Shown here one piece after another: positions 6,443 through 50,751 of a stretch of DNA of 64,000 nt; within the stretch, counting starts at the first letter, position 1, and each line of letters begins with the position of its first letter. A program made the position numbers and the translations under genes. The stretch spans positions 3,836 to 67,835 of the forward strand of contig WRJS01000002.1 in assembly GCA_009778475.1 (NCBI GenBank), read 5' to 3'. Origin of the DNA: Kiritimatiellota bacterium (GTDB lineage Bacteria; Verrucomicrobiota; Kiritimatiellia; RFP12; UBA1067). The notes under the pieces are model-generated. The model worked only from the letters and a program-made list of their open reading frames with translations. It searched no databases and was not told the DNA's origin.

Positions 6443-8360
<1,918 letters not shown>

Positions 8361-8585: not shown

Positions 8586-11500
8586 TTACTCGAAAAGAAT
8601 CTGCCCCCAGTTCTTGGGCTCGAGCTTGAGCTCGAACACGTCGTCGGCGACGATGCCGGTGGCTTGGTTGCTCCAGTGGCTGCGGAGGATGGTCTTGGCG
8701 CCTTCGGGGTCGCCGAAGGTCGCGCCGATGTCGCCGGTGTAGGTGGTGCCGGGCGCGGGGGTGAAGCCGATGTCTTTGAGGGGTATCGCGGCCTGGACGA
8801 TGTAGTCGCGGCCGGGGGTGGCCTTCACCTCGATCTTGGCGTTGTCGAGGGTCTTGACGCATTGCATCTCGTAGCCGTCGCGGATGACGCCGGAGTAGAA
8901 TTTGCGGGGGCGTTTCTCGTCGGACACGGGTTTGAACAGCACGGCGGCGGGGGTGCCTTTGAGGTTGCCGATGGAGATGCGGAGGTCGCCGAGGACGGGG
9001 GCGGTGCGCTTCCTGTCCGCGCTGGCGTCGGTGCCGAGCTGGAAGTCGACGGTGTCGCCGCGGGAGTACATCTCGGCGGCCTCGGAGGCGCCGTTGGTGG
9101 CCCAGGGGGTGGCGTCGGTGACTTTCCAGCCGAGGTAGAGCATGGCGTCGTCGTAGCCGATGGCGAACTCGACCCTGTCGGTGGGCTTCTTCTCGAATTT
9201 CATGAGCTCGCGCACGTTGAAGTCGCGGCGGATGTCGCCGGTGAAGTTGGTGACGGAGTGTTTCTTGGCGGTGGCGAGGCGCGCGCCGACGCCGGCCTGC
9301 GCGAGCTTGTCGCGGATCTCCATCACGCGGGGGAGGTCTTGGGCGGTGAGGGTGAGGGTGCCGCCTTGGAGCGCCCTCACGGTGTCGAGGCCGGTGACGC
9401 GGTGGTTGACGTAGGCGGTCTTGCCGGCCTGGAGGTAGAGGTGGCCGTCGTCGGCGATCGTGACGGAGCCGCCGAAGTCCTCCGCGCCCATGCCGGGGGG
9501 GATGTTGTCGGTGACGGCGCCGGGGACGGCGGCCTCGGGGAAACTAATCTTGGCGGCGTCGGACTCGAAAAGCTGGGTGAGGTAGAAGCCGCCCTCGGTG
9601 AGGATGTGCCACATCCCCTTGTCGGTGGCGATGACGAAGAAGTTGCCGATGGGCGCGGGGAGTTTGCCGACGCCGACGATGTCGTAGGCGGCGTTGATCA
9701 TGCCGGGCTGGGCGGGGGGGGCGTTGTGGCCGCCGTGCACGCCGACGTAGTTGTTGGGGTACGTCCATTTCAGTTTGCCGCTGGCGATGTCGTAGCAGGG
9801 GAAGTCGCTGTGGTTGACGCCGTAGTGGCCGTTGTAGAGGACGAGCGAGCCGTCGGCCGACCCGATGCCCCGTTGCGCCCCCATGCCGCCGCGCCGCTCG
9901 ATGTCCTCGGGCGCGGGCAGGCGGGTGGCCTTGGTGAGGTCGTAGCGCGGTGCGCCGCATTTCGTCCAGCCCGTGGGCGCGATGCGGTAGAGGCCGCCGT
10001 AGAACGTGAGGCCGGGGGTCATGGGCATATACCAGCCCGACACCCACCCGCCGAGTTCCACCATTTGCTCCGTGACCTCGCCGGGCTGCTCGATGCCGTC
10101 GCCGTTGGCGTCGCTCCAGATGCGGATGCCGCTGATTTTCCCGTTGGGATGGCCGTTGCCCCCGATCTTGTCCGCGAGCGCGTCGAGGCGCGCGCGGAGG
10201 CGGTAGTCGCCGGGGGCGAGGCGCTCGTAGATGTACACGGGCTGGTAGCCGTGGTAGTCGCCGCTGACCGCGACGTAGAGGCGGCCGTTGTCGCCGCGGG
10301 AGAAGCGGCAGGTGCCGCATTCGCCGCGGTGGAACACGCCGACGCATACGGCGCGACCCGTCGCCTTGTCGAGCTTCCATTCGCAGCCGCTGCCGGCCAT
10401 GACGAGCGGGTCGGCGGGCGAGATCGCGCCGCCGGGCGCGCCGTAGTGCGTGGGGCCGAAGAACTCGCGGATGAACTTGCCCGTCGCGGCGTCCCAGCAC
10501 GAGAAGCGCTTGGGGTGGTCGTCCTGCTCGGCGACCCAGAGCGTGCCGTGCTTGTCGAGGCGCACGGCCGCGATGAACCGCATCCCGTCTTTCTTCCATG
10601 GCCCGAACAGCGGGCGGCCGCCCTTCTTGCCGATGGCGCGTTTGGCCTTGCCGTCCTTGTTGAACACCTTGACCTGATTGTCGGGGTCGCGCACGCCGAC
10701 ATAGAAGTTGCCTTCCGCGTCCACGGTGAGGCACGTCGCGTTGATGATCCCCTCGATGCGCACGGCGGTCGTGCCGTCGGGCTTGACCTCGAGGACGCTC
10801 GCCTTGAACTCTTGGAACGTCGTCACGCCCTTCTTCGTCTCGAGGCGCATCTCGTCGTTCGCGAGCGCGTACAGCGTGCCGTCCGGCGCGACGGTCAGGT
10901 TGATGATGTCGCGCACGGGAATGCTCTTGGCCTGCTTGCCGGTCTTTGCGCTGAGCACGCGCACGGTGTTGCTCTGCGCGAGGTAGAGGTTGCCGTCGTA
11001 GGCGTCCAGCCCGACAAGCCCCTTGCCGACCGCCACCGTCGCGAGGCTCGAGCCCTCGAAGTTGATGTAGTCGCTCTTCGCCGTCGAGATGCGGTAGATG
11101 ACCCCGTCGTCCTGCCAGTCATAGACGTAGGCCATGCCGTTGTCGAGCGCGACGTGGGCCGCCCCGCCGAAGCCGCCGCGCTTGTGGCGCCACTTCACGT
11201 TACCCTCGAAGTCCGCGCACACGAGCGCCTTGCCCGCCTCCGAACAGTTCCAGCCCAAGTACATGCTCTCCCCGTCCGTCGCGAGTGCGCTGGGGTTGCC
11301 CATGTCGCCGCCCCAGTTGCCGCCCGGCGAGTCGTAGGGTGTCCTGCCCGCGTTGTCCGCCCACCCCACGAGGCGCAGGCCGATGCCCGTGTGGAAGATG
11401 GCCTCCCATGTGTACGCCCCCTCCGGCACGGGTTCGCCCGGCTTCAGGTGGCTCATGTTCGTCAGCCCGTCCCACGGCACGGTGTGCTTGCCCTTCGCAT

Positions 11501-24022: not shown

Positions 24023-24176
24023 TTTTACGGGAAACAACTGTCCTGATAATGGAGGGCGAGCGTCCCCGCGAGCCGCCACGCGATTCAAATTACGATAGTG
24101 ACGTTACTCAACATTAGTACACAAGGGGCGAAGCCCCGCAAGCAGTAGCGTAGGGCAGAGCCCTAGCCCTGTAGAG

Positions 24177-25217
24177 TCAGAATGCGTGGCCTGCTTCCGT
24201 GCTGACCGTCCGCCCGAGCGCGGTGAGGCGTTCGCAGGTGCGGCGGAAGCTGGCGTCACCGCCCTCGTCCACGCTGGGCTTGCCGGGGTAGAGCTGGTAG
24301 AGGCGGCGGTATTTCGCGGGCGTGATGTTCGGCATGAAGATGTTTGCGCCGCACTGCATCACGCGGTCGCGGCCGTCGGGGTCGAGCGCGTCGAACGCGG
24401 TGGTCGAAGGGATATGCGCGTGCGGGTTCAGGATGCGGAGCAGGGCCATGGCCGCGTAATAGACGCTGCGGTGCTCGAGCGTGGGCTTGCCCGCCAGCGG
24501 CGTGCCGGGGTGTGCGAGGAACGGACCGCAGCCGATCATCTGGAGGTTCAGTTGTGTCGTGAACGCGATGTCGCGCGCGATCTGCTCCAATGGCGCATCG
24601 GGCAGTCCGATCATAAAGCCGCTCCCGACCTGATACCCCAGTTCGCGTAAGTCTTGGAGACAGGCGATGCGCTCCGCAAATGCGCAGTCAGGATGGATGG
24701 CGTTAAACAGCGTTTCGGAGGAGGTCTCGAAACGCAGGAGGTAGCGGTCGCACCCGGCCGCTTTCAGTTCCGCAAGCTCCCCGCGTGTCCGCACGCCGAC
24801 GGACAACGTGACCGCAAGCCCCGTCTCGTTTTTGATACGGCAGATGATTGCGCTCAGCACAGGCGCGGTGAAGAAGGGGTCTTCGCCCGACTGCAACACG
24901 ACCGTGCCGCACCCGAGGCGTTTGGCGGTGAGTGCGGTCTCGAGAATTTCGTCCGCGCTCATGCGGTAGCGCGTGATGGCGCTGTTGCTGCAGCGGATGC
25001 CGCAATAGAGGCAGTCGTTACGGCAATGGTTGGAGAACTCGATGATGCCGCGAATGTGCACCGTGTCCCCGAAGACGCGCGCGCGGATCTGGTCCGCCTC
25101 CGCGCACAACGCGCCGAACGCGGCGGGGTCGGTGGCGGCCTGCGAGAGAACCTCCGTTAACGCGCATGGGGTTAGCTTGGCGGGGTCGATGGGGTCTGTG
25201 GAGTGGTTTAGCATCAT
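24177..25217 (-). CDS. radical SAM protein, HydE/PylB/BioB-like
   Basis: CRNDCLYCG (CX3CX2C) motif and C-terminal MPNITPAKYRRLYQLYPGK, which is characteristic of HydE/PylB. Start chosen at the internal MM (25217), because the upstream track extension translates repeat element B1. Confidence 0.65.
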   Translation of the reverse strand: MMLNHSTDPIDPAKLTPCALTEVLSQAATDPAAFGALCAEADQIRARVFGDTVHIRGIIEFSNHCRNDCLYCGIRCSNSAITRYRMSADEILETALTAKRLGCGTVVLQSGEDPFFTAPVLSAIICRIKNETGLAVTLSVGVRTRGELAELKAAGCDRYLLRFETSSETLFNAIHPDCAFAERIACLQDLRELGYQVGSGFMIGLPDAPLEQIARDIAFTTQLNLQMIGCGPFLAHPGTPLAGKPTLEHRSVYYAAMALLRILNPHAHIPSTTAFDALDPDGRDRVMQCGANIFMPNITPAKYRRLYQLYPGKPSVDEGGDASFRRTCERLTALGRTVSTEAGHAF

Positions 25218-25369
25218 GGTTGGTTTTGGGTTGGTTTGGTTGGTTTGGTCGGTTTGGTTTTTCGACTGATGGCGACTGATACCGACTGACTTCGACTTAA
25301 GTCGAACATTCGATTTCAATCGACATCAGTCGGCATCAATCGACATCAGTCGAAAAAACGATCCCTCCA
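25218..25369. repeat. family-B composite repeat element B1: (GGTT(T)G)n microsatellite + imperfect palindrome of TCGAYTGA 10-bp units centred on CTTAAG
   Basis: ggttggttttgggttggtttggttggtttggtcggtttggttttt, then cgactgatggcgactgataccgactgacttcgaCTTAAGtcgaacattcgatttcaatcgacatcagtcggcatcaatcgacatcagtcgaaaaaa. Confidence 0.75.
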
Positions 25370-26092
25370 TCAATCAATCCCCTTTGTCCCTTTGCAGTCC
25401 GGGTAGCCTGTGCACCCCCAGAACAGGCCTTTTGCGGATTTGCGTTTCTTCATGGGTTTTCCGCAGGAGGGGCAGGCGGGGGCGTCTTCTTGGCTTGCCC
25501 TTGCTTCGACACGGATTGCTGTCAGCTTTTCACGGAAGCCGCCTTCTTCTTTGAAACGTCTGCCCTGCGCTTCCAGTTGATGGCTCAGCATGTTCAATGT
25601 CCGCGCGCTCAAGATCAGCAGGGTGTTAGCAACCGTCGTGGCATCTTCCGCGTTGAGCCATTGGGCAAACCTGCGCTTCTGCTCGAGGATGTGTGAGCAA
25701 GCGTCATGCACGATGTCCGGACCATAAGCTGGCGCATCTAAGCGGAGTGCAAAAATGGTCTGCGCCTCGCCCGAGTCTTTGCGCCACGGGACATGGCCAT
25801 GACGCATCAGCCAGTTCAAGAAGTCGCCGTGAAGTTCCGTCAGGCTCGCGCGCGCCACGTCTGTGAGTTTCATTTCGGTTTCCTTGGATGTCGCGCCACG
25901 GGCAGAGCCCTCTGCGATATTTGCGCATCCTGAGCGCGCCGCCTGGGTCATCTGGTCAGACAGGCGACCGCAAGGGTCATTCGTGCGGTTCAGGAAACGG
26001 AGGCAGAAGTCCTGCGTCGCCAGATAGACGACATTCGCCAGCACCCACGAATCCAGCCGGAAGTGCCCGACGGTTCCGCCAAACATACTCAT
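25370..26092 (-). CDS. four-helix-bundle protein (23S rRNA-intervening-sequence/Avd-like fold) fused to a C-terminal topoisomerase-type C4 zinc ribbon
   Basis: ANIAEGSAR and surrounding helices match the 'four helix bundle protein' family. C-terminal CPSCGKPMKKRKSAKGLFWGCTGYPDC matches zf-C4_Topoisom. Start at internal MSMFGG (AGGAAC RBS). The upstream track extension translates element B2. Confidence 0.6.
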   Translation of the reverse strand: MSMFGGTVGHFRLDSWVLANVVYLATQDFCLRFLNRTNDPCGRLSDQMTQAARSGCANIAEGSARGATSKETEMKLTDVARASLTELHGDFLNWLMRHGHVPWRKDSGEAQTIFALRLDAPAYGPDIVHDACSHILEQKRRFAQWLNAEDATTVANTLLILSARTLNMLSHQLEAQGRRFKEEGGFREKLTAIRVEARASQEDAPACPSCGKPMKKRKSAKGLFWGCTGYPDCKGTKGID

Positions 26093-26099
26093 GGTCTTG

Positions 26100-26262
26100 T
26101 TCCTTTCTTTTTCGTTTTGGGTTGGGGTTGATTGTTTTTTTCGATTGAAATCGACTGATGGCGACGGATGTCGATTGAAATCGAATACTCGGCTTAAGCC
26201 GAAGTCAGTCGCCATCAGTCGATTTCAGTCGAAAAAAACAATCCCCAGCGTCTCCGCCGTCC
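26100..26262. repeat. family-B composite repeat element B2 (near-perfect palindrome including flanking T7/A7 runs), overlapping the rnhB stop
   Basis: gggttggggttgattgtttttttcgattgaaatcgactgatggcgacggatgtcgattgaaatcgaatactcggCTTAAGccgaagtcagtcgccatcagtcgatttcagtcgaaaaaaacaatc. The rnhB stop (26205-26207) lies about 10 nt from the palindrome centre. Confidence 0.75.
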
Positions 26263-26909
26263 CATCCGCCAAACCCCGGCAGCCGCTGCTCAACATCCTG
26301 CACGGGGCGGAAGGTGCGGCGGTGTTCGGGGCAGGGGCCGTGCTTGTGGAGGGCGGCGATATGCTCGCTCACGCCGTAGCCTTTGTTCGCGTCGAAGCCG
26401 TAGTGCGGGTATTGCGCGTGGAGGCCGCGCATGAGGCGGTCGCGGGAGACTTTGGCGATGACGCTGGCGGCGGCGATGAGGAAACTCTTGGAGTCGCCGC
26501 GCACAATCGGCGTGGAGGGACAAGGCAGGCCCTTCACGGCAAGGCCGTCAACCAGCGCATGGTCGGCCTTCACCGGCAACGCCGCGATCGCGCGGCGCAT
26601 GGCGGTGTGGGTGGCGACGAGGATGTTGAGGCGGTCGATCTCCTGCGCGGTGGCGGCGCCGACGCCCCATGCCACGCCGTCGGCCTGCGTCAGTTGCGCG
26701 AAGAACTGCTCGCGCTGGGCGGGCGTGAGTTGCTTGGAGTCCGTGAGCCCCGCGAGCGGGCCGGCGTACAATTCTTCGGCCCGTTCGGGGGGCATGGAGA
26801 CCGCGCCCGCGACAACGGGACCTGCGAGGCAACCACGCCCAGCTTCGTCCACCCCGGCGAGGATGATGGCGGGCGACGATGCCCAGAGTCTTCGTTCGTA
26901 GCTCAGCAT
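26205..26909 (-). CDS. rnhB: ribonuclease HII
   Basis: ILAGVDEAGRGCLAGPVVAGAV N-terminal catalytic motif and DSK...RNase HII core. The last ~15 codons run into repeat element B2. Confidence 0.85.
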   Translation of the reverse strand: MLSYERRLWASSPAIILAGVDEAGRGCLAGPVVAGAVSMPPERAEELYAGPLAGLTDSKQLTPAQREQFFAQLTQADGVAWGVGAATAQEIDRLNILVATHTAMRRAIAALPVKADHALVDGLAVKGLPCPSTPIVRGDSKSFLIAAASVIAKVSRDRLMRGLHAQYPHYGFDANKGYGVSEHIAALHKHGPCPEHRRTFRPVQDVEQRLPGFGGWDGGDAGDCFFRLKSTDGD

Positions 26910-28436: not shown

Positions 28437-30428
28437 TCACTCCTTCTCCTTCAACTTTTTTAGCCGCTCCGTTGCCGTCTTGCGGACAACATCGCTTCTG
28501 TCTTGCGCCGCAATCTGCGCAAGCAGCGCGAGGTCATCTATATTCTCCAGTGCCGCCCCGCGCACGTATTGGTCATCCCTTGTGTTCCTCACGATTCCCG
28601 CAAGGACCGCCTGATCCGTGATCTTGGACACGGCCTCGCGGCGACCGATCATTGCCCTCGCCTCATCCTTCGCAATTTCCGCAAGGAGTGTCTGGTTGGT
28701 AAGCTCCCGCACGGCCGTGGAAGCCAACCTCGGTTCTTTGTCATTTTTTGCAAGTTCCGCGAGAAGCGCCTGATCCGTGAGTTTGCGTATTGCCATTAGG
28801 CGCACATGAATATCATACGCGTCACGTTGCGCGATTTCCGCAAGGACCGCCTGATCCGTAATCTTGCCCATGACGATGTTGCACACACTCGGCTCCTTTT
28901 CACCCTTCACGACTTCCGCAAGGGCCGCCTGATCGGTGAGTTTCGTGATTATCATACCGCGCACCTGCCCGTCCTTTTCATCTTTCGCGATTCCCGCAAG
29001 GACGGCCTGATCCGTGATTTTACTTATTGCCGTGCCGCGCACCTGCTTGTTCGTTTGCTTCTTCATGACTTCCGCAAGGGCGGCTTGATCCGTGAGTTTC
29101 CGCACGGCAATGTGACGCACCAGATCGTCCTTGTCACTTTTCGCGATACGCGCGAGGGCGGTCTGATTGTTGAGCCTGCTTGTCGCCTCCGCGCGCGCGT
29201 CTCGGTCTGTGCTTTCCTTCGCGGTTTTCAAAAGTTGTTCTTGGTCGGCGGCTTTTTCAGGGGCCGCGGGAGCAACACCCGCGCCCTCCTCCTCGGTTTG
29301 CACAGGAAGTGCGACACCCTTCTTCAATTGCTCCAGCCGTGACGCCGCCCGTAGGCGCATTTCTCTGCTTTTGTCATCCTTGGCTAATTGCGCGAGAAGA
29401 GCCTGATCTTCTAATCTCACGACAGCCTCCCAACGTATCGACCATTCTTTTTCTTTTGTCATGATTTCCGCAAGGGCGGCTTGGTCGGTGAGTTTCCGCA
29501 CGGCCGCCGAGCGTACCTGCGAGTCCTTGTCTGTCTTTGCAATCTCGGCAAGAAGCACTTGGTCTTTCAACAGTTTCACAGCCTCCCGGCGAACACTTGA
29601 ATGTTCGTCGTTTTTCGCAATCCGCGCAAGGAGAGCCTGATCCGTGAGCCTTGCCGTAGCCTCCCAGCGCATCCAAGGGTTCTTGTCCTCCGTTGCCATC
29701 TGCGTGAGGAACGCTTGGTCATCGAGTTTGGATGCCGCCTCTATGCGCACAAACACGTCCCGGTCAGTCATGAAGATCTCTTCAAGAACCGCCCGGCTAT
29801 CCAGTCTTGCCACAACCGCCCGGCGCACATCCCTATCTTCCTTCGTATCCTTGGCGATCTGCGCGAGAAACGCCTGATCCGTGATTCGAGGCAAAACCTC
29901 TAGGCGTACATCATTGTTTTTCCCGTCCCTCGCGATTTCCAGAAGAAGCGCCTCGTCCGTGATTTTGGATAACGCCTCAAAAGCAACGGGCAGACTCGAA
30001 TCGCTCTTCGCAATCTGCACAAGGAGCGCGGTGTCTTTGAGCCTGCGCACCGCCGACTGGCGCACGTTTGAATCCCCGTGCCGCTTCGCGATGTCCGCGA
30101 GAATCGCCTGGTCTTTAATCTGAAAGACCGCATGCACACGCGTCTCACTGACGTCACGCGCGGGTGTCTCCGCGACCTCTATGTTCCACACGATGTCCGC
30201 AAGGAGTGCTTGGTCTTTGATTTGGCTTACCGCAAATTGGCGCACTAAATAATCCTTGTCCGTTTTCGCGATTTGCGCAAGGCGTTTTTCATCCCTGATT
30301 GTGTGCAACTCCTCGAAACGCGCCTCCCAGCCCTCGTCATGCGTCGGGTACGGGTGGCTCCTCGCCATGCACTCGGAAGCCCCTGCCAGCAGAGCGAAGA
30401 GCAGCAGCAGATGTGTGAAGCGTCTCAC
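28437..30428 (-). CDS. secreted HEAT-repeat (PBS-lyase HEAT-like) protein with about 20 tandem ~31-aa repeats
   Basis: Signal peptide MRRFTHLLLLFALLAGA. Repeats of the form ...VR.AAV.KLTDQALLAEIAKNDK.... Confidence 0.7.
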   Translation of the reverse strand: MRRFTHLLLLFALLAGASECMARSHPYPTHDEGWEARFEELHTIRDEKRLAQIAKTDKDYLVRQFAVSQIKDQALLADIVWNIEVAETPARDVSETRVHAVFQIKDQAILADIAKRHGDSNVRQSAVRRLKDTALLVQIAKSDSSLPVAFEALSKITDEALLLEIARDGKNNDVRLEVLPRITDQAFLAQIAKDTKEDRDVRRAVVARLDSRAVLEEIFMTDRDVFVRIEAASKLDDQAFLTQMATEDKNPWMRWEATARLTDQALLARIAKNDEHSSVRREAVKLLKDQVLLAEIAKTDKDSQVRSAAVRKLTDQAALAEIMTKEKEWSIRWEAVVRLEDQALLAQLAKDDKSREMRLRAASRLEQLKKGVALPVQTEEEGAGVAPAAPEKAADQEQLLKTAKESTDRDARAEATSRLNNQTALARIAKSDKDDLVRHIAVRKLTDQAALAEVMKKQTNKQVRGTAISKITDQAVLAGIAKDEKDGQVRGMIITKLTDQAALAEVVKGEKEPSVCNIVMGKITDQAVLAEIAQRDAYDIHVRLMAIRKLTDQALLAELAKNDKEPRLASTAVRELTNQTLLAEIAKDEARAMIGRREAVSKITDQAVLAGIVRNTRDDQYVRGAALENIDDLALLAQIAAQDRSDVVRKTATERLKKLKEKE

Positions 30429-38758: not shown

Positions 38759-38916
38759 GGGACGCGGGGACTATGATGATGGCGATGGGACTACAGGACT
38801 ACGGGACACCGGGACTACGGGGCGGGGACTGCGGGACGCGGGGACACACGTTCCGTCGTCCCGAAATCGCAGTCCTGTCGTCCAGAGTCCGTCGTCCCCA
38901 AAATGAGGAGAACAAA
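38759..38916. repeat. family-A intergenic element A1 (GGGAC-tract / GTCCC-tract imperfect palindrome)
   Basis: gggacgcggggac...gggactacaggactacgggacaccgggactacgggg...ccgtcgtcccgaaatcgcagtcctgtcgtccagagtccgtcgtcccc, followed by GAGGAG-N7-ATG of tpsA. Confidence 0.7.
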
Positions 38917-44802: not shown

Positions 44803-45220
44803 GGAGAGTGTGGAGAGTGGAGGGTGGAGAGTGGAGTTGCGAAGGGACGATGGGACAAGGGGACGCAAGGACGATGATGATGGCGGATTTGGGGACTACG
44901 GACTACAGGACTACAGGACTACGGATTGGGGACGAAGGGACGCAAGGACAGTGATGATGGCGGAGGGACTACAGGACTACGGGACTACGGGACTACGGCT
45001 TTCGGGACGTGGGGACGCGGGGACATGGGGACAGCGGCTGCTTAAAAGCCGTTGTCCCGTTGTCCCGTGTCCCGTCGTCCCGAAAGCCGCCGCCGCCGTC
45101 CCCTCGTCCCCTCGTCCCCCCACAACTCCACTCTCCACACTCCACTCTCCACACTCCTCTTTCCACACTCCACTCTCCACCCTCCACTCTCAACACTCGC
45201 CCCACCGTCCCCTCGTCCCG
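44803..45220. repeat. family-A element A2: ~400-bp composite imperfect palindrome (GGAGAGTGGAG arms, GGGACTACGG repeats, G4 motif, 12-bp stem hairpin, CCCGT tracts)
   Basis: Left arm gagagtgtggagagtggagggtggagagtggag pairs with right arm ctccactctccacactccactctccacactcc. Core gggacgtggggacgcggggacatggggacagcggctgcttaaaagccgttgtcccgttgtccc. Internal duplication of a gatgatggcgga..ggactacgg module. Confidence 0.8.
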
Positions 45221-47533: not shown

Positions 47534-47725
47534 GGCATGAGAAGTGTGGAGAGTGGAGTTGCGCAGGGACGAAAGGATGATGACGATGACGATGACGGAT
47601 TTTGGGATTACGGACTACAGGACACCGGGACTACGGCTTTCGGGGCGTGGGGACGCGGGGACATGGGGACAGCGGCTGCTTAAAAGCCGTTGTCCCGTTG
47701 TCCCGCCGTCCCAGCGTCCCAAACC
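47534..47725. repeat. family-A element A3; ~90-bp core nearly identical to A2 (44985-45073 vs 47620-47708)
   Basis: gaagtgtggagagtggagttgcgcagggacga...gggactacggctttcggggcgtggggacgcggggacatggggacagcggctgcttaaaagccgttgtcccgttgtcccg, then AGGAG-N8-ATG of the next gene. Confidence 0.8.
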
Positions 47726-48743: not shown

Positions 48744-48805
48744 TGGGTTGATTTTTCGACTGAAGTCGAGTGAAATCGACTGAGGGCGACTGAAATCGGG
48801 TTAAG
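48744..48805. repeat. family-B element B3 (truncated: GGGTTGATTTTT + TCGACTGA units + GTTAAG centre, right arm missing)
   Basis: gggttgatttttcgactgaagtcgagtgaaatcgactgagggcgactgaaatcgggttaagtcgag. Confidence 0.65.
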
Positions 48806-48826
48806 TCGAGCATTTGGAGAGAAATT

Positions 48827-50605: not shown

Positions 50606-50751
50606 GGGGAGACTTTATGGAAAGCGGGACTACGGGACGACGGACGACGGGACTACGGCTGGGGACGATGGGACGCGAGGACGCGGGGACTGTTTGTCGT
50701 CCCGTAGTCCCGGCGTCCTGTGTCCCGAGAAATCGAATTTGGAGGAAAAAC
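50606..50751. repeat. family-A element A4
   Basis: gggactacgggacgacggacgacgggactacggctggggacgatgggacgcgaggacgcggggactgtttgtcgtcccgtagtcccggcgtcctgtgtccc. The left gggactacgggacgac pairs with the right gtcgtcccgtagtccc. Confidence 0.7.

Follow-up and report, generated by a model that had tools for sequence, protein, structure and literature searches.

The locus and its gene

The 64,000-nucleotide stretch of a Kiritimatiellota bacterium considered here (contig WRJS01000002.1; 'the window' below, always at its full length) carries, between the RNase HII gene rnhB and a radical-SAM gene, a gene for a 240-residue protein that ends in a zinc ribbon, and on each side of that gene lies a long palindrome built of phased 10-nt units (Table 1). 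Judged by its profile matches, the gene belongs, without anything unusual, to a family that is annotated and functionally uncharacterized, the four helix bundle suffix family, and it is the relationship of members of this family to the palindromic arrays beside them that is the main concern of what follows.

A four-helix bundle with an ANIAEGSAR core at the N-terminus and a topoisomerase-type zinc ribbon at the C-terminus had been recognized in an earlier note made from the letters of the sequence alone, and profile searches bear out both. Residues 43–88 match the NCBIfam model 'four helix bundle' (TIGR02436) at 30.3 bits, above the cutoff of 24, and the same residues, i.e. the central motif only, match Pfam 23S_rRNA_IVP (PF05635) at 30.0 bits, just below the gathering score of 33.8; a precomputed PF05635 match is present on many homologs. 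The ribbon matches Pfam Zn_ribbon_Top1 (PF01396) at 42.3 bits against a gathering score of 32. What was missed is a third domain, C-terminal to the TIGR02436 bundle, that matches the NCBIfam model 4helix_suffix (TIGR04258) at 54 bits against a cutoff of 40. An AlphaFold2 model built from a 22-sequence alignment (predicted local distance difference test score 86) has the bundle followed by a long helix of the suffix and a ribbon of three strands, with the suffix domain comprising a long helix at 151–183 and another at 186–202. Its top structural match is 2GSC, and the fold is of both the S23p type and the Avd-like four-helix-bundle type. The four zinc-ribbon cysteines, C207, C210, C227 and C233, are invariant in the alignment of homologs, and charge is concentrated in the ribbon, whose isoelectric point (pI) is 9.5, i.e. 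basic, versus 6.3 for the bundle. Bundle, suffix and ribbon were the only matches in Pfam and NCBIfam, with none to an HUH/Y1 transposase or other catalytic motif.

Each arm of the flanking arrays is a run of about five phased units, TCGAyTGAwr, around a CTTAAG center. In the array upstream of the gene, to which Tandem Repeats Finder (TRF) assigns a period of 10, the arms (26130–26184 and 26189–26243) are 84% complementary; in the downstream one (25246–25306 and 25309–25369) the value is 79%, and a 101-nt stretch of one array is 85% complementary to the other. As RNA they are predicted to fold at −72.4 and −69.1 kcal/mol, respectively, with z scores against shuffled sequence of −10.4 and −10.1. 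In the minimum free energy (MFE) structure of the whole-cassette RNA (1011 nt), the 5′ array region pairs instead with the 3′ array region in a stem of about 110 bp around the open reading frame (ORF). Elsewhere in the 64 kb the only copy of this array family is a partial one. The surroundings as first described, with rnhB and the radical-SAM gene to either side, were correct as far as the genes go, and left out the arrays, which are the only conserved neighbors.

Other identities for these sequences were considered. No sigma-70-like promoter was found in 24900–26500, and terminator-like matches near the gene are at chance level and include no terminator consensus; the arrays are not canonical intrinsic terminators because the T (U) run precedes the stem and an A run follows it. 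Known RNA families gave only sub-threshold matches to plant miRNA precursors, as generic long hairpins do, and none at gathering score, and there is no rRNA within the window. CA-rich leaders (AACCAAACC..., seen as TGGTT repeats on the plus strand) lie between array and start codon both for the downstream radical-SAM gene, hydE, and for the helix-bundle gene (25217–25260 and 26093–26129, respectively).

Table 1. Positions in the window of the helix-bundle gene, its domains and the palindromic arrays
Feature	Position	Strand	Basis
Coding sequence of the 240-aa four-helix-bundle suffix/zinc-ribbon protein (MSMFGG...KGTKGID*), stop codon included	25370..26092	−	ORF translation, profile matches
S23p/IVP-type four-helix bundle, residues 1–150, with RSGxANIAEGSAR core	25643..26092	−	
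Four-helix-bundle suffix domain, residues 152–199	25496..25639	−	TIGR04258, AlphaFold2 secondary structure
C4 zinc ribbon of topoisomerase-I type (CPSCG...GCTGYPDC), residues 207–237	25382..25474	−	PF01396
Palindromic array upstream of the gene, CTTAAG center, T-run and A-run at its flanks	26130..26243	.	Self-complementarity, RNA fold, TRF
Leader, CA/A-rich, with Shine-Dalgarno-like AAAGGAA about 8 nt before the ATG	26093..26129	−	Read from sequence
Palindromic array downstream of the gene, same family, beginning right after the stop codon	25246..25369	.	Self-complementarity, RNA fold
Solitary partial TCGA-phased array in another intergenic spacer	48752..48810	.	
GGGACnnn array	38787–38845		
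GGGACnnn array	44893–45119		
GGGACnnn array	47641–47720		
GGGACnnn array	50625–50727		
GGGACnnn array	62622–62697		

A large family under constraint

At E ≤ 1e-3, at least 2658 clusters were retrieved from among 5.8 billion proteins, so that the fusion, for which the earlier note had advised a profile search, belongs to a large family and is no one-off. The best 120 matches are all full-length proteins of 240–280 aa with 95–100% query coverage and 64–82% identity; several of the top ones carry the name 'four helix bundle suffix domain-containing protein', and they have the same zinc ribbon at the C-terminus. At least 567 loci with the family are present among GTDB species representatives, the hosts being Kiritimatiellia, Lentisphaeria, Verrucomicrobiota, Planctomycetota and Bacteroidales of gut and rumen, with several copies in some metagenome-assembled genomes (MAGs), and at least 283 loci were found in JGI metagenomes. 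Within the window itself, neither further family members nor short S23p paralogs were found.

Mean column identity in the alignment of homologs is 74%, and the ratio of nonsynonymous to synonymous change (dN/dS) is 0.03–0.18 across family comparisons, 0.097 for the window gene against its counterpart in locus L088. Given these values, the protein is functional and tightly constrained, under strong purifying selection. A phage origin was rejected: there are no family members among 2.9 million viral contigs, PHROG matches of the protein are limited to its zinc ribbon, and the phage Avd PHROGs are unmatched. Membership in a known anti-phage defense system was likewise rejected, PADLOC families being unmatched at E ≤ 0.1.

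Arrays at other family loci

The arrays were sought in 150 non-redundant family loci. Defined strictly, as at least four exact TCGA cores phased at 9–10 nt, they lie directly upstream of the family gene in 66 of 137 loci and directly downstream in 62 of 140, against a density elsewhere of 0.04 per kb and none in shuffled loci. Their usual period is 9 nt and their spacing is stereotyped, the last unit ending most often 16–18 nt before the ATG, which leaves barely enough room for an AAGGAG Shine-Dalgarno sequence, and the first downstream unit beginning most often 14–17 nt after the stop codon. A scan that is agnostic to the core (TRF, period 8–11, at least three copies) detects arrays on at least one side in 95 of 128 loci (74%) and on both sides in 50, an odds ratio of about 11 over background (p ~1e-62). 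Folding energy of the flanks was dropped as a hairpin detector in favor of explicit palindrome and phased-unit detectors, since GC-rich flanks all fold strongly and their MFE is uninformative.

The arrays are also where homology ends. Between loci of differing context, it covers some 945–960 bp, bounded at either end by the outer edge of an array, and then stops, as with L090 (9908–10860) and L097 (1786–2742), or L092 (4679–5622) and L093 (9907–10831); the rest of the 10–20 kb compared has nothing in common save solitary arrays. The flanking 95 nt are 66–82% identical versus 46–60% at fourfold-degenerate sites, a comparison to be read with the caveat that repeats of a common unit align easily, and outside the arrays identity is at the random level. 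In the window, the rnhB reading frame enters the upstream array and ends inside it (stop codon 26205–26207). The 114-nt palindrome both splits rnhB from the gene and overlaps the rnhB stop, an arrangement more like the scar of an insertion than the design of an operon.

When average-linkage clusters of the proteins were set against their flanks, the core of the array was seen to change with the protein clade, from bacteria of the Planctomycetota–Verrucomicrobiota–Chlamydiota (PVC) group to Bacteroidales. A large PVC clade has (nnGAATCGA)n and (TCGATTCnn)n at period 9, and another clade TCGATAATn, as in TCGATAAT, at the same period. TCGA units of 10 nt that are rich in GC are found in several clades. 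The window gene and L088 share TCGAyTGAwr. Two termite-gut clades have (CGGGACTnn) and (nnAGTCCCG), and rumen Bacteroidales (CGTTATnnn) and (nnnATAACG), each again with period 9. CCCGAAATn or CCGGAATAn is seen at other loci. Arrays are absent from one Bacteroidales clade (cluster 2), which has a typical Bacteroidetes promoter. Paralogs within one MAG differ in array type, and each type recurs with the orthologous paralog in a second MAG. Where solitary arrays lie close to a cassette, their type is the local one.

In many loci the downstream array begins 7–27 nt before the stop codon. The C-terminal tails that some homologs have past the zinc ribbon (DSNDSIRSN and the like in P0112 and P0116; columns 250–276 of homolog alignment A1) are translated downstream array. 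At two loci (L029 2174–3440, L036 6390–7662), cognate arrays of the TCGATAAT type fill one short spacer after another in a row of pseudopilin-like genes of type II secretion, and ORF callers run the N-termini through these arrays, which gives residues such as SIMSILSILS.

The cassette, its proposed role and comparable systems

Positions 25246–26243 form a discrete cassette of about 1 kb, which is tentatively interpreted, at somewhat less than an even chance, as comparable to an intervening sequence (IVS) of 23S rRNA or to the REPIN/RAYT systems dealt with below, with a protein that would act on its own repeats. Its order is palindromic array, leader with Shine-Dalgarno sequence, ORF, palindromic array. 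Such a cassette would have spread horizontally, been inserted between rnhB and hydE and be transcribed by read-through. Its protein would probably be oligomeric, as are its pentameric relatives, with the zinc ribbons binding the phased 9–10-nt units of its own flanking arrays and of solitary copies, either as DNA or as RNA hairpins, and the binding may control expression or processing of the cassette and/or how the repeat family is maintained and spreads. Whether folded as two local hairpins or as one long-range stem of about 110 bp, the arrays would be ideal substrates for RNase III, whose cleavage could free a hairpin-capped monocistronic mRNA from the rnhB–hydE transcript, the hairpins then serving to stabilize it.

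The proteins encoded in 23S rRNA IVSs, which are relatives of the suffix family, have been a puzzle since the 1990s. IVS elements are selfish, have complementary sequences at their borders, are cut out by RNase III and encode S23p, which in Xanthomonas is a homopentameric toroid (PMC4990558). With those of the Leptospira, Coxiella and Xanthomonas type, the cassette shares an ORF of the same four-helix-bundle superfamily, complementary termini able to form one long stem and stems that are candidate RNase III substrates, as well as a distribution that is sporadic and independent of context, which suggests horizontal spread. However, the cassette lies between protein-coding genes and not in helix 9, 25 or 45 of rRNA, each of its ends is itself a full palindrome of phased 9–10-nt units, and its protein has two additional domains and evolves under clear selection; the Coxiella S23p, in contrast, is apparently not made.

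RAYT (TnpA_REP) genes, for transposases associated with repetitive extragenic palindromic (REP) sequences, are flanked by their own REP or REPIN elements. The parallel is of a gene in single or few copies between copies of a palindromic repeat family that is also dispersed as solitary intergenic copies, with sub-types of the gene paired to sub-types of the repeat. Unlike RAYTs, the cassette protein is not an HUH/Y1 (IS200/IS605-like) transposase; its repeats have four to five phased short units per arm, REPs being 20–40 nt, and dispersed copies are apparently few (0.04 per kb near genes and one in 64 kb here). Integron cassettes are comparable in having a promoterless ORF bounded by imperfect palindromes, there the attC sites, of about 60–120 nt, and some family loci (L003 and L008) have tandem palindrome–gene–palindrome modules. 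The arrays, however, lack the R″/R′ core sites of attC (RYYYAAC/GTTRRRY), their ends reading TTTTCGA...TCGAAAA; they go with a single gene family and not with varied cargo, and no integrase was seen.

Several considerations count against a protein that acts on the repeats of its own cassette. It has no recognizable catalytic motif, and we know of no sequence specificity for zinc ribbons of the Top1 type. Some clades, e.g. Bacteroidales cluster 2, manage with an ordinary promoter and without arrays, and co-variation of clade and repeat is partly to be expected from co-inheritance of a gene with its flanks. Mismatches between arms are 27 G:T and 23 A:C, i.e. unbiased, and since the two are about equal, a sense-strand RNA hairpin is not favored over a DNA palindrome. 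A precise empty site, with the same context and a single array, was not found among HydE orthologs, where gene order is also changed. Intergenic regions of these genomes quite generally have phased palindromes, and the window has arrays of a second type with no family gene nearby. The layout and limits of the cassette, the array enrichment, the change of repeat with clade and the selection on the ORF are shown by the data; binding, oligomeric state, processing by RNase III and the mechanism of mobility are matters that we infer.

Arrays without the protein

The second type of array lends weight to the alternative that the arrays are generic PVC intercistronic hairpins, with a role in mRNA processing, stability or insulation, or selfish REP-like repeats, and that they travel with, or gather around, a horizontally acquired gene whose protein has an unrelated nucleic-acid-binding role. 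Phased palindromes of the form (GGGACnnn)n...(nnnGTCCC)n, with period 8, are commoner in the window than the TCGA family, and each of the five (Table 1) lies just upstream of the Shine-Dalgarno sequence and ATG of a large surface-protein gene, several of these genes being giant; the array at 47641–47720 is predicted to fold at −74.5 kcal/mol. Arrays could exist independently of the protein, as this family is abundant without a nearby family gene and stands before several unrelated genes. Solitary TCGA arrays between unrelated genes, such as those for pseudopilins or between aroA and a retroelement, the clades devoid of arrays and the lack of strand bias in the arm mismatch spectrum all fit such generic arrays. 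They do not account as readily for an 11- to 90-fold enrichment at the suffix family with stereotyped spacing, for homology whose limits, in contexts that are unrelated, fall exactly on the outer edges of the arrays, for the differing types kept by paralogs of one genome or for array cores that follow the protein clade across phyla. On balance this alternative is rated as rather unlikely.

The GGGAC core resembles that of the CGGGACT arrays of the termite-gut clades, and the resemblance suggests that a cognate paralog for the GGGACnnn arrays may be present elsewhere in the genome. Between two of the giant genes, there is a composite palindrome of about 400 nt (44806–45198) in which outer arms of 7-nt GAGAGTG/CTCCACT repeats enclose inner GGGAC/GTCCC arrays.

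Kinship with Avd

The earlier note had likened the bundle to the accessory variability determinant (Avd) of diversity-generating retroelements (DGRs), with the remark that no reverse transcriptase (RT) and no template or variable repeats (TR and VR) were visible. The remark holds. A phmmer search with two DGR RTs found no RT homolog among the ORFs of the window, and comparison of the window with itself found no adenine-biased TR/VR pair, the sole match (44852–45025) being a tandem array; the same scan recovered true pairs in L008, L092 and L100. A hidden DGR in the window was rejected with both searches empty. This absence, together with a family that is very common, stands alone and keeps no protein-coding neighbor, is essentially what the note had named as refuting its proposal.

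Kinship with Avd (4DWL, 8UB7) fares better at the level of the fold superfamily than as a role at this locus, and in a minority of family loci the gene does abut a DGR RT–TR. Of the 150 loci, 83 have at least 3 kb upstream, and in seven of these a DGR RT(–TR) is immediately upstream on the same strand, three RT lineages being involved. Avd proteins are about 110–130 aa and basic, with a pI of about 9.5 (PMC5758913). The window protein, in contrast, has twice the length of Avd and a bundle that is not basic, and its family is highly conserved, usually far from any RT and absent from phages. Our conclusion is that the protein and Avd have a common ancestry (see also PMC10053308), and that the protein is not a DGR component at the window locus, being at most an occasional neighbor or facultative partner of DGRs.

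The group of L008 and L090 has a complete DGR of the HRDC type, with an FGE-sulfatase target that contains the VR, an RT, a TR and an HRDC accessory gene; the TR is 138 nt, and 96% of its 26 mismatches to the VR are at TR adenines. The DGR occupies 6791–10840 of L008 (=L090), with VR at 7856–7993 and TR at 9184–9321, and its genes are separated by GAATCGA-type arrays like those that flank the adjacent helix-bundle gene, in a tandem palindrome–module–palindrome arrangement. HRDC-type DGRs are present also at L092, L100 and L003. An obligatory accessory role in DGRs was rejected, as three look-ups showed that RTs 60–70% identical, of the same HRDC-type clade, sit in target–RT–HRDC cassettes with neither the helix-bundle gene nor arrays.

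Still to be weighed is an Avd-type accessory factor that would act in trans with a DGR elsewhere in the genome, its zinc ribbon tethering the complex of RT and template RNA to nucleic acid. This we consider improbable. In addition to the missing RT, TR and VR in the 64 kb, about 92% of family loci are without an RT within reach, and the DGRs that are adjacent already have an HRDC accessory gene, with 60–70% identical relatives that do without a four-helix-bundle gene. Absence of the family from viral contigs, the unmatched phage Avd PHROGs and a bundle that is not basic argue in the same direction, as do the possibility of several divergent paralogs per genome and extreme conservation when set against Avd proteins, which are 'very poorly conserved'.

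Genomic context

The position between two co-oriented genes is as first described. Upstream, rnhB (26205–26909) matches NF000595 at 231.8 bits, and downstream the radical-SAM gene is that for HydE (TIGR03956, 305.7 bits against a cutoff of 254.6), both in NCBIfam; beyond rnhB is a gene for an M20 dipeptidase, likewise co-oriented. Protein-coding neighbors of the family gene vary from locus to locus and none is conserved. The sole other locus seen to share synteny is L088, whose protein is 82% identical and where hydE is kept downstream, and relatives with a 76–80% identical HydE are without gene, cassette and arrays. A '++' orientation of the neighbors was counted at 49 of the 87 loci, which is not clearly distinct from ordinary bacterial gene clustering.

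The suggested link of the protein to RNase HII, e.g. in recognizing RNA:DNA hybrids or R-loops, is very improbable, for although the gene is co-oriented and probably co-transcribed with rnhB in the window, rnhB adjacency was not seen in the other family contexts examined, relatives with similar HydE genes do without the helix-bundle gene, and the 114-nt palindrome that overlaps the rnhB stop lies between the two genes.

The last residues of this RNase HII, FFRLKSTDGD, are array-encoded (26205–26243), and the NCBIfam alignment of the enzyme ends near residue 205 of 234. In a relative without the cassette (L176, 2380–2510), the spacer after rnhB has a different tandem element of about 60 nt, with the palindrome CCCCTTCATTGATGAAGGGG. 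A 91-nt tRNA-His called by ARAGORN within the rnhB coding region on the opposite strand (26316–26406, plus strand) is probably a false positive, since Rfam finds no tRNA there. Just downstream of hydE, the Acido-Lenti-1 small RNA model has a weak, sub-threshold match at 24124–24166 on the minus strand (19 bits, gathering score 37, E 0.39). Further away, at 28437–30428 on the minus strand, is a gene for a HEAT/PBS-like repeat protein, with 78-nt tandem repeats at 28894–29101; a HEAT_PBS-like gene is also the downstream neighbor of the family gene in the unrelated locus L004/L018.

Implications

The negative answer is itself of use, the locus being neither a hidden DGR nor a partner of RNase HII. 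What is left is a large and exceptionally conserved family, with thousands of clusters and no assigned function, in a superfamily of which Avd is, to our knowledge, the only characterized member. Full-text searching of the literature found no description of suffix-family function or of TCGA-phased palindromes, and the steady association of the family with clade-specific phased palindromes appears to be undescribed. Palindromes of phased units are a class that populates intergenic spacers of Kiritimatiellota, Lentisphaerota, Verrucomicrobiota and Planctomycetota.

More doubtful than the interpretation of the single cassette, and still worth stating, is its extension to the family as a whole. 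Suffix/zinc-ribbon proteins of PVC bacteria and Bacteroidales may, with their clade-specific arrays, form an unrecognized class of repeat–protein partnership in which each paralog, a protein of the S23p/Avd superfamily and not a transposase, would recognize its own repeats and maintain, process or mobilize them. With a cassette whose repeats co-vary with its protein, cognate repeat recognition becomes a testable hypothesis for what had been a 'hypothetical protein', and such a partnership, if true, would provide the first functional handle on the proteins encoded in the intervening sequences of 23S rRNA.

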